Assembly (NCBI RefSeq): GCF_006345805.1
Contig: NC_042998.1
Span: forward strand, 110,794,001-110,858,000
Direction of reading: 5' to 3'
Origin: Octopus sinensis
Lineage: Eukaryota
DNA length: 64,000 bases
Part shown: positions 757-61,306 of the stretch, piece by piece
How the letters are laid out: every line of letters starts with the position of its first letter
Position numbering within the stretch: position 1 is the stretch's first letter
Notes under the pieces: model-generated
Told to the model about the DNA's origin: nothing
Databases searched by the model: none
Seen by the model: only the letters and a program-made list of their open reading frames with translations
Position numbers and translations under genes: made by a program

Positions 757-802
757 AACACAACGTTTCGGCTGATATACCCTCCAGCCTTCATCAGGTG
801 TC
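757..802 (-). ncRNA. Minimal type-I hammerhead ribozyme (Penelope-type), intact core
   Basis: Minus strand reads gacac-CTGATGA-a-ggctg-gagggtatat-cagcc-GAAAC-GTT-gtgtt. Stem I gacac/gtgtt, stem II ggctg/cagcc, palindromic AACGTT stem III. Confidence 0.85.
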
Positions 803-811
803 TTGGGGCAT

Positions 812-875
812 ATAGAGTAGTGGTTAAGAACGCGGGCTACTAATCCCAAGATTCCGAGTTCGATTCGAGGCGGTG
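812..875 (+). mobile_element. tRNA-derived SINE head (Pol III A/B boxes)
   Basis: tagtggttaag (A box), gagttcgattc (B box) and anticodon-like arm gggctactaatccc; no complete acceptor stem. Confidence 0.7.
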
Positions 876-1289
876 ACGTTGTGTTAACAACAAACAAGAT
901 GAGGAGAAATATCCGTCAATTGTAAATAATGTAAATAATTCCTCATCTCTTAAATATAGAACAGTGTGTATGGGTGTTTGTATAATGGTGTGTGAGGGTA
1001 CCGAGGTAAGCGATGTGAAGGTATATAGGTGCAAGGGATGGGTAGTTGAATGTGGGAGGTGTGTGGGAATCAATCTAATGGCGTTGCCGAAGTTTTTGCC
1101 AGGAGTCTTTTTGCAATCTTATTCTACAGAAATTGCATCGTGAAAAAAGTCCCACGCGGTGCACGAAATCTTGAACTAAGGATCGAATTAACAAAGAAAT
1201 TCTGAATAACGAGTATTTTCGCTGAAATTTTATATTTTTGATGCATAGGTCTTTCTATGATGAATTTGCCATCGTTATCTATCCAGTTA

Positions 1290-1640
1290 TCTATCTGTCT
1301 GTCTGTCTGTCTGTCTATCTATCTATCTATCTATCTATCTATCTATCTATCTATCTATCTATCTATCTATCTATCTATTTATCTATCTACGCACACACAC
1401 ATATATATGCATATATATACATGTATATTTATGTTTATATAAATACATGTATATATATATATATGCATATATATATATATGTATATATATATGTGTGCAT
1501 ATATGTATATACATGTGTATAGGGGTGGGGAGTGTTTGCGTGTGTGGGAGGTGCGTGTGTATGTGTGTGGGTTTGTATATATACATATATTCATACATAC
1601 ACATATATATATGTATATATATATATATATATATATATGA
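1290..1640. repeat. (TCTA)n, (TA)n and TG-rich microsatellite block
   Basis: Directly visible tandem repeats. Confidence 0.95.
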
Positions 1641-2996
1641 AACCGTACCGTCTTATCGGCTGCAGGTGATTTCGGTCTTAACATAACGACGCCTATCGCT
1701 GTAATTTTCACCAAAGGCATGTAGAAACACACTTCTTTACTTTTGGTAAATATAGTAGACATTTAAGATGAAATTACTAAATAAACCTTTTGTCTGCCAG
1801 TGTCTTTTTTTGTAGTGCGTAAAAATCAACAGTAAAGTTTTATTTGTTTCCCTTGAACTAAGTCTCTAAATGTGAGTGTGTGTGTGTGCGCGTAAAATCA
1901 TGTGTGTATGTATTTCTACACGCATACCTATATTTGCATACATACAATATAAATATGTTTATTTTACAATTTACATCGATTTTCTGTTTTACTCTGGTTT
2001 TTAGTATATTACATATTTTCTTGTCTACTGTAGGTTATATTTTATGACATAGAACATCGACAAATCAATACAGTAAGACATTGACGGTTAATATGTTACT
2101 TAAATCTCTGCAGATGAAGCCTACTCATGGTTTCAATTAAGACGGGCAAACTGTTTTCCATAACGAAAATGCATTTATTAAAAGTCTTCAGCACAAAAAT
2201 AACTATGCAAATATTTACGGAAAATCATAAATATTGTTCAAGAGATCGCTCCTGATGTCTGGCAAGATAGGATAACAGATGTTTTTCTTTTTTTTTTCTT
2301 TGCTGTTCACCATTAATTTAGACCATACATATTCGGTAAAAGTGGAAGTACATCTCCCAAACGTGTACTGCGATTCAAGACCTTCCGATAAATAGCTAAA
2401 AGTCCGCAACAGTAGAGTATTGTTACCACATTTGTGACGAGCTGGATGTTATAAATGCGGGTGTCCTGATCGGATTTAGAGAAAGAGCATACTGCATCTG
2501 GCCCACAGGCATGTTGTCTCGCTTCTCTGAATTCCATGATTACTTTGACTCTATTTCTCGGATCATGTTGGTGTAGAGCTTTCTCGACTCAAACATTCCC
2601 AACCTAGTCGTAGTTCCCTCTCTCACCATCTTTACTATGTCCCATAACAAGTCGTTGCACAAAACAACATTTCTGGTACTTCTTTTCCAGAACATTTATG
2701 TCCTGGATCATCTTAACTGCTCTAGTCGTTTTGCTTGTATTCGCTTGCAAATATTTTTAATGGACAGTAAGGACATTCATTTTACTAACCTCGGAGGGCC
2801 CGCAAAGTTTATAATCGTTACTCTTTCTTCTAGTCCTCCAACATACAAAAGTAGCATGTTTTCCTTGTACGACATAGAAAGACGAGAATAATGCCAGTAA
2901 CAAATTTGAAATTTCCTGCTGTAAAAATAAAAGAAGTCAGCTTAGTTAATATATTTCTACAAGAAAAAGTAGATCGGAATCACATATGTTACAACT

Positions 2997-57490: not shown

Positions 57491-60400
57491 ATAGCGTCGT
57501 AATTGTATTTACTTTACTATTGCATTGCAACACTCGGACCCGAAATATAACAATATTTTGCGTTGGCAAAATAAAATTTTTTTTAGATCTAACTGCAATA
57601 TTAATGCTTCTAAGTAGGTGAAGAAATAATTTAATGAAATTAATAAATAATTAATCGTTTAATTTAAACGAACATGTATAAATCTTTTTTTCTTTCTATA
57701 AGTAAAAGTACAAAGAACTGGTCGGCATAGGTGATAAGAACCTGCTGACAAGGAAACTCAAGATTTTTGTTGTAAACAGCAAATATCAAAATGCTCTTTT
57801 CCTGATAGGTAAATTTACTTCAAAATGTATTCTTAGTTTATTCGAATTAACTCTCCAAATTTTGGAAAGCCGCTGACACTTACTGTAAAGTTGCAGCTAA
57901 ACGCTTCTTATCCGGATAAAACTACTCAATAACTTCTATATTGTATATGTCATATGATTCTCTTACGTATTTATCCATACCTAATTCCACTGGAGTTATT
58001 TTAAATAGCTCTTTTGGTTGTGTGTGTGCGTGCGTGTGTATGTGTGCGTGTGTGCGTTATTATGTATGTGCGTGTATATGTGTGTGCGTGTATATGTGTG
58101 TGCGTGTATATGTGTGTGCGTGTATATGTGTGTGCTTGTGTGTGTGAGTATATCAGTGTATGTGCTATAATTATAGGAACCCATAATGAATGCAACTTCC
58201 TTTTATCTAAACACAAAATCGAAGACGCAATCAAAATGCAAGTATCTGAATAACAGTGCAATATTAATCTTAATACGAATATTAATGTTAATATTCGTGC
58301 ATTCGAGTGTAGGTAGCAGATGTAATCCAAGGATGTCAAGGTGAACGAAGTAGGAGTAAAACATGGGGCAGGAATGTACAAAAACATATCCATCAATCAA
58401 CCATAAAGATTGTTACAGTTAAAATGAAAGATAAAAGCATAATGTGTGGGAGGAAGGAAGACATGAACAAAGATACGTACGCTACATGAAACAAACTCAA
58501 TTATAGCGACAATTATAATAGAAAAATTAAAGTATTGTGGGAAGGAGGTCAGGTAGAATGTATCAGGAGAGAAAACTGAGTGCATTGTGGAAACATGACA
58601 TACACAATTACATACACACACGGATATGCACATATAAGTATAGATAGATACATATATACTTGCTTGCATACATACATACATACATATATACTTGCTTGCA
58701 TACATACATACATACATACATACATACATACATACATACATACATACATACATACATACATACTTACACGCAATGGCATCCGAGCATATCAATTTCAACA
58801 CACGTATCTTCTCACTTCCATCGCACAAAATAATCATTAACCATTTTCTGTATTTAACACCGAAATAGAAAATCGCATGCGCGAATCAAGTGATTAAGTT
58901 GCACTTCAAATCGTTAAAAGGACACAGAAAATGCGATAGTATGTGAGCAGTGTCATTTTACTGGGTGCAGTTATTTATACAACTTTATCCAGTGAATTAA
59001 TTCTTAAGCGTCCTGCAAAAATTCAACAAAAATGTCTTACTTGGAAATGGATTTTATTATATAATTTTCGTGATAAAATGTGAAAGTTCTAATCCGGTTT
59101 TCATGTAAATATGTGTGTGTGTGTGTGTGTGTGTGTGTGTGGTGTGTGTGTGTGTGTACGCTGTGTGTATGTATAGATTTACATGTATGTCTGTATGTAT
59201 GTTATGTATGTATAGAGTGTTTGAAGTGGAGTACATATATTGTATAGTAAGTAAAAGGAGGCAGTCAGAATTTTGGATAGCTCTTTATTAGCGCTTTCGT
59301 TCGTTTTCGAACTCGTCCACACAAAATCAAAATCATATGTATATAATGCAAATACGAAGTTAACATGGTACACCATAAGTAGTTTTAACAAAGCATTCTA
59401 CGAGCATTGCTTAGTAAATATGTTCATTAGCATATGAATATTTGGGGACATCGACATAGCTCTAAAGAAACAGATAATAGAAAGAGGTTAAAATCTCATG
59501 CATTATAAAAGGAAATGTGGGTGTTCTTACCTCGGTTCCTTTTGATAAAATATCAATTGTCGAGATGGGAGAAATATCCTGTAAAGAGTTACTAACAAAA
59601 CACCATCTCACAAGGAAAAATTACGTCGAAGTACTTAACATGGAATTGTGTCTTTATGAGAATGCATTCTAAGTTATAAAACATAAGTAGACAACATCAG
59701 ATTTTCCGAAATATTTTACAACCAAATTGCTCAATTAAAAGCAACGTGATGATATTTTAAATGACTAATACATGAACATCACATGAACATCATTTCTTGG
59801 AATTTATTTAAATCAATATTAAAACGACATTTGTATCGAACGGTTAAATCAACACTATATTATAGTTTCAGATTTATCGTAGACAAAGAATTAGCTTGTT
59901 GATTTTTTTATTTGTCAAGAGCTGAGGAGGCATTATCCGAGTATAGGAGATAAATTAGCTCCCCTACACATTTCTACAATACTACGACTTGATATCAGAA
60001 ATAGAGCCACAAGAATTAAATTATGGGTGTTATAGCTATATTGATAGATAACAATCCATATAAAACCCGCTGATAGATTACATTCAGACATCAATATGAT
60101 ATGGTAGTTTAAACCAATTGCGTGTTACAATATTTGCTATAAAAATGTTGGATATGAATCGAATATCGATTCAAATAATCGAAACGTAAATATGGTAATT
60201 ATTAAGAAACGAATCTAAGCATTTGTGGTTAATTTAAACACTACTCAGATTTCAAAAATCTTTATATTTCTTATACTATTGCAATAACAATATCTGTATC
60301 AAAAATCTTAGAATATAAATATATGTAAGCATATGCACGCACATACATACACACACACACAAACACATACATACACACACTCACGCACACACATTCATAC

Positions 60401-60543
60401 CGCCTAGGTCCATCTATCTATCTATCTATCTATCTATCTATCTATCTATCTATCTCTCTATATATATACAGATATGTAACAAGTATATAACAAGTGCAAA
60501 TAAGTATACATGCAAATAGGTAACAAGGATGTTCAGGTATCAA

Positions 60544-60630
60544 TGCATTACGGCTGTTTCAAGCGGTTCCATTTAATCGATCAATGAAAACATTACATCA
60601 ATTTGAAATAAACCGCTCTCTTCGGGAAAG
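60544..60630 (-). ncRNA. Degenerate hammerhead with long stem II
   Basis: CCGAAGA-g-agcggtt...aaccgct-t-GAAAC-agcc-GTA; U4>C change and stem I eroded. Confidence 0.55.
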
Positions 60631-61222
60631 ATGACCACATATATTTACAACATAACTATACGAAACTGGCTTGATGCCTCAATTAAACACCTAAATCAAC
60701 TGGATCTTAATTATATTATATGTATATATATATATATATATATATATATATATATATGCTGTCCACTTGATATAATTGGTATTTTGAATAACGATCTTAT
60801 CCTTATTTATATACAACATCATGATTTAAAGTCTACCCCTACCCTGCTTTTTTTTAGACAGTTCTATCAAATTGACTCTTCTTAATTTCTTATTGCCTTT
60901 CTCATAGGGAAAAGGGATACCTATGATAATATTTATGACCATGCCTGGTCATGAGCTGTCAACTCACTCTTGTTCTTTATTCAAAATAGACACAGTCTTC
61001 AGATTTAATAGATGATAAAAAGATAACTTAGAAATGAATTACAACTCTTACAACCCTATGACCCCACTATGTTCCATGCGATTCTAAGAAATTGTAGTCT
61101 ATTCTTAGCCACTTTTTGTGCAATAGGAACAACAAGAATTTATTCCATCTTCTTATTCTGTTAAAATATTTAGGAAAAAGTATATTGATATGTCCTATTT
61201 GTTAAAAATTTCTATATTCTGC

Positions 61223-61306
61223 GCAGCTGAAGGTAGCACTGCGTTTAAATTGATGTAATGATTGCCCTGTTCAATTAAATGGAACGATTTGAAACGATCG
61301 TACTGC
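61223..61306 (+). ncRNA. Type-I hammerhead with about 57-nt stem II insert
   Basis: gcag-CTGAAGG-...-GAAAC-GATC-GTA-ctgc. Stem I gcag/ctgc, palindromic ACGATCGT stem III; A9>G change. Confidence 0.7.

Follow-up and report, generated by a model that had tools for sequence, protein, structure and literature searches.

The stretch of DNA considered here (the window) comprises 64,000 nt of the Octopus sinensis genome (NCBI RefSeq assembly GCF_006345805.1, contig NC_042998.1, positions 110,794,001 to 110,858,000 of the forward strand), a 2.72-Gb genome with 35% GC that is rich in microsatellites. The window consists of retrotransposon and transposon debris without a long clean open reading frame (ORF), and it harbours ten hammerhead ribozyme sites that fall into six lineages, A to F. 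Most of these motifs are decayed; those of families A and F come from the ends of Penelope-like elements (PLEs), and those of families B to E from short ORF-less repeats. An origin from PLEs is highly probable. The best overall explanation, which we hold with reasonable confidence, is that these are decayed PLE-type hammerheads, and that the end of family A includes a tRNA-like segment that likely serves as a promoter for RNA polymerase (Pol) III.

Hammerhead sites of the window and their genomic families

The only intact hammerhead is that of family A at 757..802 on the minus strand. Its stem I pairs 802-798 with 761-757, the core CUGAUGA occupies 797-791, a 5-bp stem II follows one unpaired A, GAAA lies at 769-766, and stem III (ACGU) would form only in a dimer; the predicted cut falls between 762 and 761. 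The family A tail at 716..756 (-) corresponds, in full-length copies, to the beginning of the PLE ORF. An inverted partner copy is joined at head position 1 and consists of a tRNA-like head with an A box and a B box (806..877, +) and a tail (878..967, +). Family B is represented twice, at 5969..6019 (+), where a G3-A8 mismatch and two stem II mismatches mark a decayed copy in an element with a 5′ inversion (about 5774-6133), and at 25714..25762 (-), where a G3:C8 core is combined with a 2-nt deletion at the stem III/I border near the cut site (element about 25623-26063). Three sites belong to family C: a copy truncated within stem II and devoid of the core (13685..13750, -, site 13690), a decayed copy with U4 changed to C and the 5′ strand of stem I lost (60540..60625, -, site 60544), and a copy with a 56-nt stem II hairpin and A9 changed to G (61221..61308, +, site 61223; element about 60815-61450). 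The family D site (9831..9891, -) has U in place of G5. In family E (21481..21537, -, site 21480) the core is intact and the 5′ strand of stem II is replaced, within an inversion-bearing element at about 21319-21835 with a unit of about 460 nt; the related E2 site (4144..4199, +; element about 3971-4221) has U in place of A15.1. The family F motif (8414..8455, -) combines a U3:A8 core at 8450-8444 with a 5-bp stem II, a stem III of ACAUGU and a weak stem I.

The initial annotation, made from the sequence alone, had reported ten type-I folds, and each is confirmed at its position and strand. All ten sites exist, but 757(-) alone passes a type-I descriptor that requires an intact core while permitting any Watson-Crick 3-8 pair and a dimer-only stem III. 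Comparison of each site with its genome copies shows that eight of the nine failing sites are mutated or truncated, the ninth being 8414 with its weak stem I; a complete core is kept within the window only by 757, 21480, 25714 and 8414. The five stem III palindromes quoted in that annotation are present, except that 5970 reads AATAGT, with AATATT found instead in 25714 and its family. Its count of six families stands if the site it considered weak, 8414, is included, but only five lineages occur among the sites it considered strong. As to their being unrelated in sequence, the profiles of A, B, C, D, E and F give no cross-matches, whereas E (21480) and E2 (4144) turn out to be one lineage, the two profiles reciprocally matching 24/25 and 25/25 of each other's copies. 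Decay in most window copies, the tRNA-like head and the G3:C8 core were not mentioned.

The genome copies of each site were taken as best-scoring matches and are therefore biased toward the query. Judged by C3UGANGA9, G12AAA and U16.1H17 together with a Watson-Crick 3-8 pair, canonical cores are found in 50/51 copies of A, 19/26 of C, 18/21 of D, 24/25 of E and 15/20 of E2; other 3-8 pairs characterize B (G3:C8 in 85 of the first 100 of 737 places) and F (U3:A8 in 25/25). The expectation that family copies restore the core and stems is borne out for A to E, and it is because the families have good cores, while the window copies are mostly mutated, that the window yields a single descriptor pass. 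Among family copies the descriptor is passed by 30/51 of A, 31/59 of B, 11/21 of D and 18/25 of E; the low figures for C (1/26), E2 (0/20) and F (0/25) weigh against the overall explanation. In F, two U-U mismatches lie among the first five stem I pairs by the core, with a long AU stem beyond. The stems of E/E2 are paired in 83.5% of cells and 6 of 13 pairs change on both sides; covariation is 0.323 compared with 0.186 after shuffling, a value based on 21 of 45 copies and inflated by the relatedness of the two subfamilies, and pairing is at most 48% when the alignment is slid.

The idea that the folds arose by chance in a repeat genome rich in AT and in palindromes could draw on the failure of nine of the ten window sites to pass the descriptor, on minimum-energy folds of single strands that are not hammerhead-shaped at several sites, and on the three intact motifs found in a reversed genome sample. 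It is contradicted by the restored cores of the family copies, by the compensatory changes in E/E2, by a position in the pseudo-long terminal repeat (pLTR) that agrees with published PLE hammerheads, and by abundance. In a random genome sample of 80 evenly spaced 10-kb stretches (800 kb), the descriptor finds 9 intact motifs against a mean of 0.8 (range 0-5, 20 shuffles) in a shuffled-sequence control of the kind proposed in the initial annotation, which is above chance, even though the reversed sequence gives the 3 already mentioned; family profiles have no matches in the reversed control. In the window itself the one intact match compares with one in total over 40 block-wise dinucleotide shuffles (mean 0.025) and none in the reversed window. 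Chance is thereby refuted for A to E and, as an account of the whole, very improbable.

An Rfam scan of the window gave 191 matches, and the 150 of these that were listed include no hammerhead family, nor did two further scans yield one; minimal PLE motifs lack a closed stem III. The microRNA matches (mir-297, mir-3149, mir-466 and others) are all under the gathering score and are artefacts of (TA)n and (TATG)n microsatellites. It is a supported reading that the motifs are type-I hammerheads with the palindromic stem III of the PLE kind, and cleavage is predicted from their sequence.

From 9 motifs in 800 kb, 0.7 intact motifs are expected per 64 kb and one is observed, so that the window is an ordinary piece of this genome in this respect; its ten family sites look dense in part because the families were defined from it. 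The random sample contains 18 loci of window families (A 5, B 3, C 3, D 4, E/E2 2, F 1), which extrapolates to roughly 60,000 loci in the genome (Poisson range 36,000-97,000). The population of ribozyme retroelements postulated from the window is indeed large, with at least 1408 (A), 737 (B) and 40 (F) exact copies of short probes, and diverse, since 8 of the 9 motifs in the random sample lie outside the window families, and for 5 of the 8 additional copies occur in the approximately 2 Mb examined. That it is non-coding applies to B, C, D and E, which show no ORF within 1.5 kb, but not to A and F, which are ends of PLEs with reverse transcriptase (RT) and GIY-YIG domains; 10/51 copies of A and 14/25 of F are preceded by a PLE protein encoded on the same strand. 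The five repeated families absent from the window were met in random stretches L204, L219, L225, L265 and L270; the core of L265 is U3:A8, and L225 copies change on both sides of stem II.

Family A: a Penelope-like element with a tRNA-like head

The order of parts in family A is head (A and B box), (AAT)n, ATG, in-frame hammerhead, RT, GIY-YIG, stop codon, head, hammerhead and tail. The tRNA-like head, 76 nt long, is situated between stop codon and hammerhead and is followed by (AAT)n and then ATG. In one copy (L437), which starts at head position 4, the frame that begins at the ATG crosses the hammerhead and enters the RT with no stop codon for 300 codons, and the 3′ ends of two others (L434 and L436) consist of stop, head, hammerhead and tail; from these 5′ and 3′ ends it follows that the pLTR comprises head, body, hammerhead and tail, with the head as its 5′ end. 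The hammerhead pLTR can thus occur at either end of the RT and GIY-YIG ORF, although none of the 8 fetched copies has both, and all A copies seen are broken or partial, with no Pfam match on three A fragments. The ORF upstream of A has 101 homologues, mostly RT (PF00078 with PF26215), two of them with GIY-YIG, and its C-terminus is 48% identical to protein P0011. Residues 17-32 of P0011, at its predicted N-terminus, coincide with the peptide encoded by the in-frame hammerhead of family A, as seen in 1 of 14 long homologues. Judging from their motifs (the linker has cysteines in F but not in A) and from homologue architecture, A may belong to the Poseidon clade and F to the Neptune clade.

The resemblance of the head to a tRNA extends beyond its boxes: tRNA positions 33, 37 and 56-61 fit in 17-21 of 21 colinear copies, positions 8-32 and 53-55 being fixed by copy selection, and comparison with tRNA-Arg and tRNA-Ala genes of the genome gives z scores of 5.1-6.0. 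A typical family A copy is a solo end of 250-300 nt that starts at the head, often with two ends head to head, and 5′ inversions are found in 23/51 copies. Two anchors describe where copies begin. Of the first 30 of 371 exact head matches, 24 break off no more than 8 nt upstream and 6 continue further. The first 30 of 1408 body matches include 18 that reach the head start, where 11 end and 7 continue; of the others, 2 break off within the head and 10 lack a direct head within 1.5 kb. Combined (one locus being common to both sets), 35 of 47 head-reaching copies stop within 8 nt upstream of the head. The 12-letter upstream junction is also matched in only 8 of the 100 listed exact head matches, as compared by hand, and body or hammerhead follows the head in 28/30 cases. 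Of the 12 strand-switch joints listed from RNA reads, 8 lie at 1515-1539, around the head start at 1532 (17 further joints lie outside the list). Short A copies resemble short interspersed elements (SINEs): they are below 700 nt, their 5′ end is at the head, and their 3′ end is common to the partner. A and B each display two 3′ ends. A 150-nt tandem period considered for A was discarded, as every match rested on a single query copy.

Transcription of family A

Pol III terminates at runs of four or more T residues. The sense strand of family A contains no TTTT in 2829 nt (two non-overlapping natural pieces that tile the element), where 3.75 are expected; the probability of finding none is 0.012 under dinucleotide shuffling and 0.048 and 0.013 under two codon null models. 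Other retroelement ORFs of the same genome contain 20 TTTT in 7931 nt, and the eight TTTT runs found in eight A copies are each private. The related ORFs at 41 loci, drawn from 64 related metagenome loci after short and duplicate matches were left out, have 371 TTTT observed and 371 expected, and 0/38 are without any. Within the short A unit alone the absence is uninformative (0/10, TTTT being absent upstream as well). A sense strand without TTTT would allow Pol III to read the entire 2.8-kb unit.

A second case may be provided by L442 (194-3100 of a metagenome contig), a tandem PLE whose protein is 38% identical to P0011. Its stop codon is followed by tRNA-like A and B boxes (2829-2895), (AAT)n, and a hammerhead that starts at the ATG, and among ten long relatives it has the longest run of sequence free of TTTT, 2575 nt compared with 474-1332. 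An A/B-box pattern written before L442 was seen matches only L442 among the 41 loci and misses the A head; another pattern finds the A head and misses L442, and a third, fitted after L442, misses the A head, so that its rate is no test. The cassette of L442 is unrelated in sequence to the A head, which suggests a separate capture. A scan of viral contigs found no relative.

In the proposed mechanism, Pol III would start 0-8 nt upstream of the head in any A copy and read through the whole 2.8-kb unit. The short RNAs of solo ends would contain the tail in which the PLE protein would begin reverse transcription, and would hence be copied like SINEs. Target-primed reverse transcription would begin in the tail on uncleaved RNA, giving rise to solo ends, two 3′ ends and head-to-head pairs, while cleavage would be weak and would depend on dimers that pair at the palindromic stem III; insertion may not require it, as is the case for Anolis Poseidon.

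The alternative keeps the PLE origin but regards the tRNA-like segment as a passenger, the remnant of an old SINE or of a tRNA that was captured by the pLTR of an element transcribed by Pol II from an ordinary internal promoter. The absence of TTTT would then be due to chance, and 5′ ends would pile up because the pLTR starts there or because cDNA folds back on a small hairpin. Such a promoter has a precedent in Drosophila Penelope, which according to the available text has a TATA-less, LINE-like internal promoter with a downstream promoter element (PMC2377424). A short hairpin does span the head start, and fold-back of 5-60 nt is frequent there and could produce the pile-up of 5′ ends mechanically. 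Against a passenger stand the A and B boxes, which occur in exact tRNA register at the very 5′ end, the many copies that stop next to unrelated upstream sequence and without fold-back, and the fact that the sole relative with a tRNA-like cassette is the most TTTT-poor of the ten. On balance we regard a passenger as unlikely, though the least unlikely of the rival explanations.

It is important to point out that, in addition to the Drosophila precedent and the hairpin, several observations weigh against transcription by Pol III. The TTTT test is post hoc and its P values are only 0.01-0.05; the 2777 nt of L442 still include two T4 runs, close to its start, though no T5, and its cassette cannot be aligned with the A head (z 0.3). 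Two relatives without boxes, L446 and L462, are also low in TTTT (1 against 4.4 and 2 against 4.9 expected). The head is not called a tRNA by ARAGORN, in the window and eight A loci, or by Rfam. In three raw RNA-seq runs from the same or a related species (8642, 6404 and 6051 family A reads), family A RNA is abundant and about equal on both strands, and 73-78% of reads enter unlike flanks, which is passive read-through; the same reads include no site of piled-up molecule starts or ends, and thus no discrete RNA. A short RNA made by Pol III would probably escape libraries of fragmented cDNA, so that the RNA-seq data are weak evidence, but they lend no support to Pol III.

The odds that the tRNA-like segment of family A is a Pol III promoter, from which transcription is predicted, appear to us about even. 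How far Pol III transcription extends matters for its probability, which lies between even and somewhat doubtful depending on whether the whole element or only the short ends are meant. The most far-reaching version, which is offered tentatively and at less than even odds, is that some autonomous PLEs have captured a tRNA-derived promoter, are read by Pol III from end to end, have been purged of TTTT over 2.8 kb and hence possess solo ends that are ready-made SINEs, that this has happened at least twice (A and L442), and that a G3:C8 family with thousands of copies exists in the same genome.

Families B to F and comparison with known ribozyme elements

Family B is distinguished by its reversed core pair. 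A search that leaves positions 3, 7 and 8 unconstrained matches 737 places, and a count by hand of the 3-8 states in the first 100 gives 85 G3:C8, 6 G3:U8, 3 G3:G8, 3 G3:A8, 2 U3:C8, 1 C3:C8 and 0 C3:G8. In a set anchored outside the core, G3:C8 is found in 23/30 copies, and stems I (7 bp) and II (5 bp) and the palindromic stem III are all intact in 13/30. In a PLE hammerhead the engineered double change C3G/G8C is reported to restore cleavage in part (PMC11167929), and the G3:C8 core of B is predicted still to cut, at a slow rate. No natural G3-C8 family was found in the literature searched, a search outside which a key paper on PLE variants lies. Upstream of the B hammerhead (for example in L403-L432) lies a degenerate (TACA)n block of 300-500 nt, preceded by additional non-coding sequence that the copies share. 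A G3:C8 hammerhead in a metagenome contig (L467:1305-1350), about 175 nt after a PLE ORF, is a second natural case, in another organism and as a single copy.

Family F is the 3′ terminus of a PLE that is very young: the 8414 site matches the family exactly, and no fewer than 40 copies in the genome are identical over 141 nt. A GIY-YIG domain lies 900-1000 nt upstream of the motif in 14/25 copies, and RT with a CxxxxCxxC linker further upstream. Only 3′ ends of its pLTR were seen, with inversions in 2/25. In the window the family is present as a 5′-truncated PLE (8340..9790, -) composed of the GIY-YIG end (9427..9780, -; PF01541, E 1.3e-7), a 3′ region of about 1 kb with 93-bp tandem repeats, the hammerhead-like motif and a (TA)n end. 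The tandem repeats are rich in CCAAT- and CRE-like words. An assignment of the ORF at 9427-9780 to the 9831 motif, situated immediately upstream of it, was rejected, as the ORF belongs to family F. Neptune-like GIY-YIG ends lie within the (TA)n tails of D and E2 copies (at 9790 of the window and in L399 and L400), and such nested insertion into microsatellites makes unrelated hammerheads and ORFs appear linked.

For B to E a partner ORF was not found within 1.5 kb (matches in 1/89 copies of B, 0/26 of C, 1/21 of D and 0/45 of E), a point against the overall explanation, and both stray matches are explained by neighbouring insertions or distance. An endonuclease-like reading upstream of C and E has no PLE protein match, and GIY-YIG genes downstream of two E2 copies are separate insertions after (TA)n. 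Copies of C share 1.1-1.3 kb of common non-coding sequence, and B, C and D have inversions and microsatellite ends; 5′ inversions are found in 36/59 copies of B, 11/21 of D and 15/25 of E. In their inversions and microsatellite targets, B to E appear to behave like PLE derivatives. They would use PLE enzymes in trans, and it is likely that they borrow those of Penelope elements.

The initial annotation viewed all six lineages as non-coding retrozymes that amplify through self-cleaved circular RNA monomers. This account finds its best ground in E/E2, where sequence from downstream of the hammerhead recurs on its upstream side, with a period of about 460 nt in E (7/25 copies) and about 480 nt in E2 (6/20), and no ORF is present, and B, C and D likewise have no ORF within 1.5 kb; retrozymes, moreover, derive from pLTRs, as stated in the available text of a recent study (10.64898/2026.07.22.740005). 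For the set as a whole it is improbable: A and F are the ends of coding PLEs, no shared tandem period was found for A, B, C, D or F, copies span both sides of the cut site, as uncleaved templates would give (PMC11167929, available text), and no read in the three RNA-seq runs ends at the cut site. We retain PLE-type hammerheads as the general explanation and consider E/E2 likely to be a retrozyme-type unit of 460-480 nt. With non-LTR retrozymes (PMC7229834; 10.64898/2026.07.22.740005), as far as their accessible text goes, E/E2 share an ORF-less unit, a type-I hammerhead and permuted partial tandems; they differ in that the 460-480-nt units form partial tandems with inversions rather than arrays.

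Further debris in the window includes a broken LINE (long interspersed element) reverse transcriptase at 12117-13614 (-; PF00078, E 4e-18), presumably CR1/L2-like, and a zf-RVT fragment of another LINE at 50847-51323 (+; PF13966, E 4e-8). A Mariner-like remnant at 47778-48688 (weak match to the Mos1 helix-turn-helix) has inverted arms at 47778-47950 and 48509-48681. Inverted 323-nt copies at 3002-3324 and 28468-28790 are 98% alike, with an end that looks tRNA-like by eye, and are a young SINE unrelated to the hammerhead families.

Reportedly, Ohshima and Okada described the octopus tRNA-derived SINEs OK, OR1 and OR2 in 1994. The A head may already be catalogued as one of these or in Repbase; a tRNA-derived head is common to both, and OR2 is mentioned as a CORE SINE in the text available. 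That many hammerhead families exist per animal genome is already in print (PMC4209133; 10.64898/2026.07.22.740005). Cervera and de la Pena (2014, PMC4209133) described minimal hammerhead families in PLE pLTRs, 9,000 in Xenopus, and the accessible part of their report agrees with the octopus in that a genome holds numerous families that differ in sequence, with copies in the thousands, most of them solo. Also in agreement are an unpaired base that follows A9, a palindromic stem III, inverted pairs separated by 100-700 bp and a U3-A8 variant as in family F, but the accessible part contains no G3-C8 family and no tRNA-like head. PLE inversions and tails have been described as well (PMC8557442, in part). 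The available text of Perreault et al. (2011, PMC3088659) gives the U3-A8 pair, the state of family F, and the U10.1-U11.1 mismatch, the state of family C, as natural and tolerated, and does not name G3-C8.

Poseidon of Anolis carolinensis (PMC11167929) resembles family A in a hammerhead that overlaps the ORF start, a tail in the first part of the ORF, and the lack of RNA-seq ends at the cut site, and target-primed reverse transcription within the tail on uncleaved RNA has been shown for it. In the portion of that paper available to us, neither a tRNA-like head nor Pol III is mentioned, and G3:C8 is engineered in Poseidon whereas it is natural in family B. The closest precedent is Sm-alpha and Sj-alpha of Schistosoma (reviewed in PMC6765202, available text), short SINE-like repeats in which a Pol III-type promoter is followed by a type-I hammerhead. 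Family A, in contrast, occurs dispersed, shows inversions and tails of the PLE type, and on both sides runs without a break into an RT and GIY-YIG ORF, so that its partner can be seen and the head is part of the autonomous element. No tRNA-headed or Pol III-driven PLE was found in the literature searched, Repbase, Dfam and supplements aside, which does not establish its absence from print.

The tRNA-headed, TTTT-free PLE and the G3:C8 family are what goes beyond known biology. Family B provides a natural, amplified G3:C8 core to compare with the engineered double mutant, and descriptor searches restricted to C3:G8 and U3:A8 miss entire families. Family A bears on the questions of how PLEs are transcribed and what purpose the hammerhead serves. 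If its reading by Pol III is true, a protein-coding retrotransposon transcribed in this way, whose first codons contain a ribozyme, would depend on cap-independent translation, and it would illustrate one route by which SINEs may arise directly from their partner's own end.

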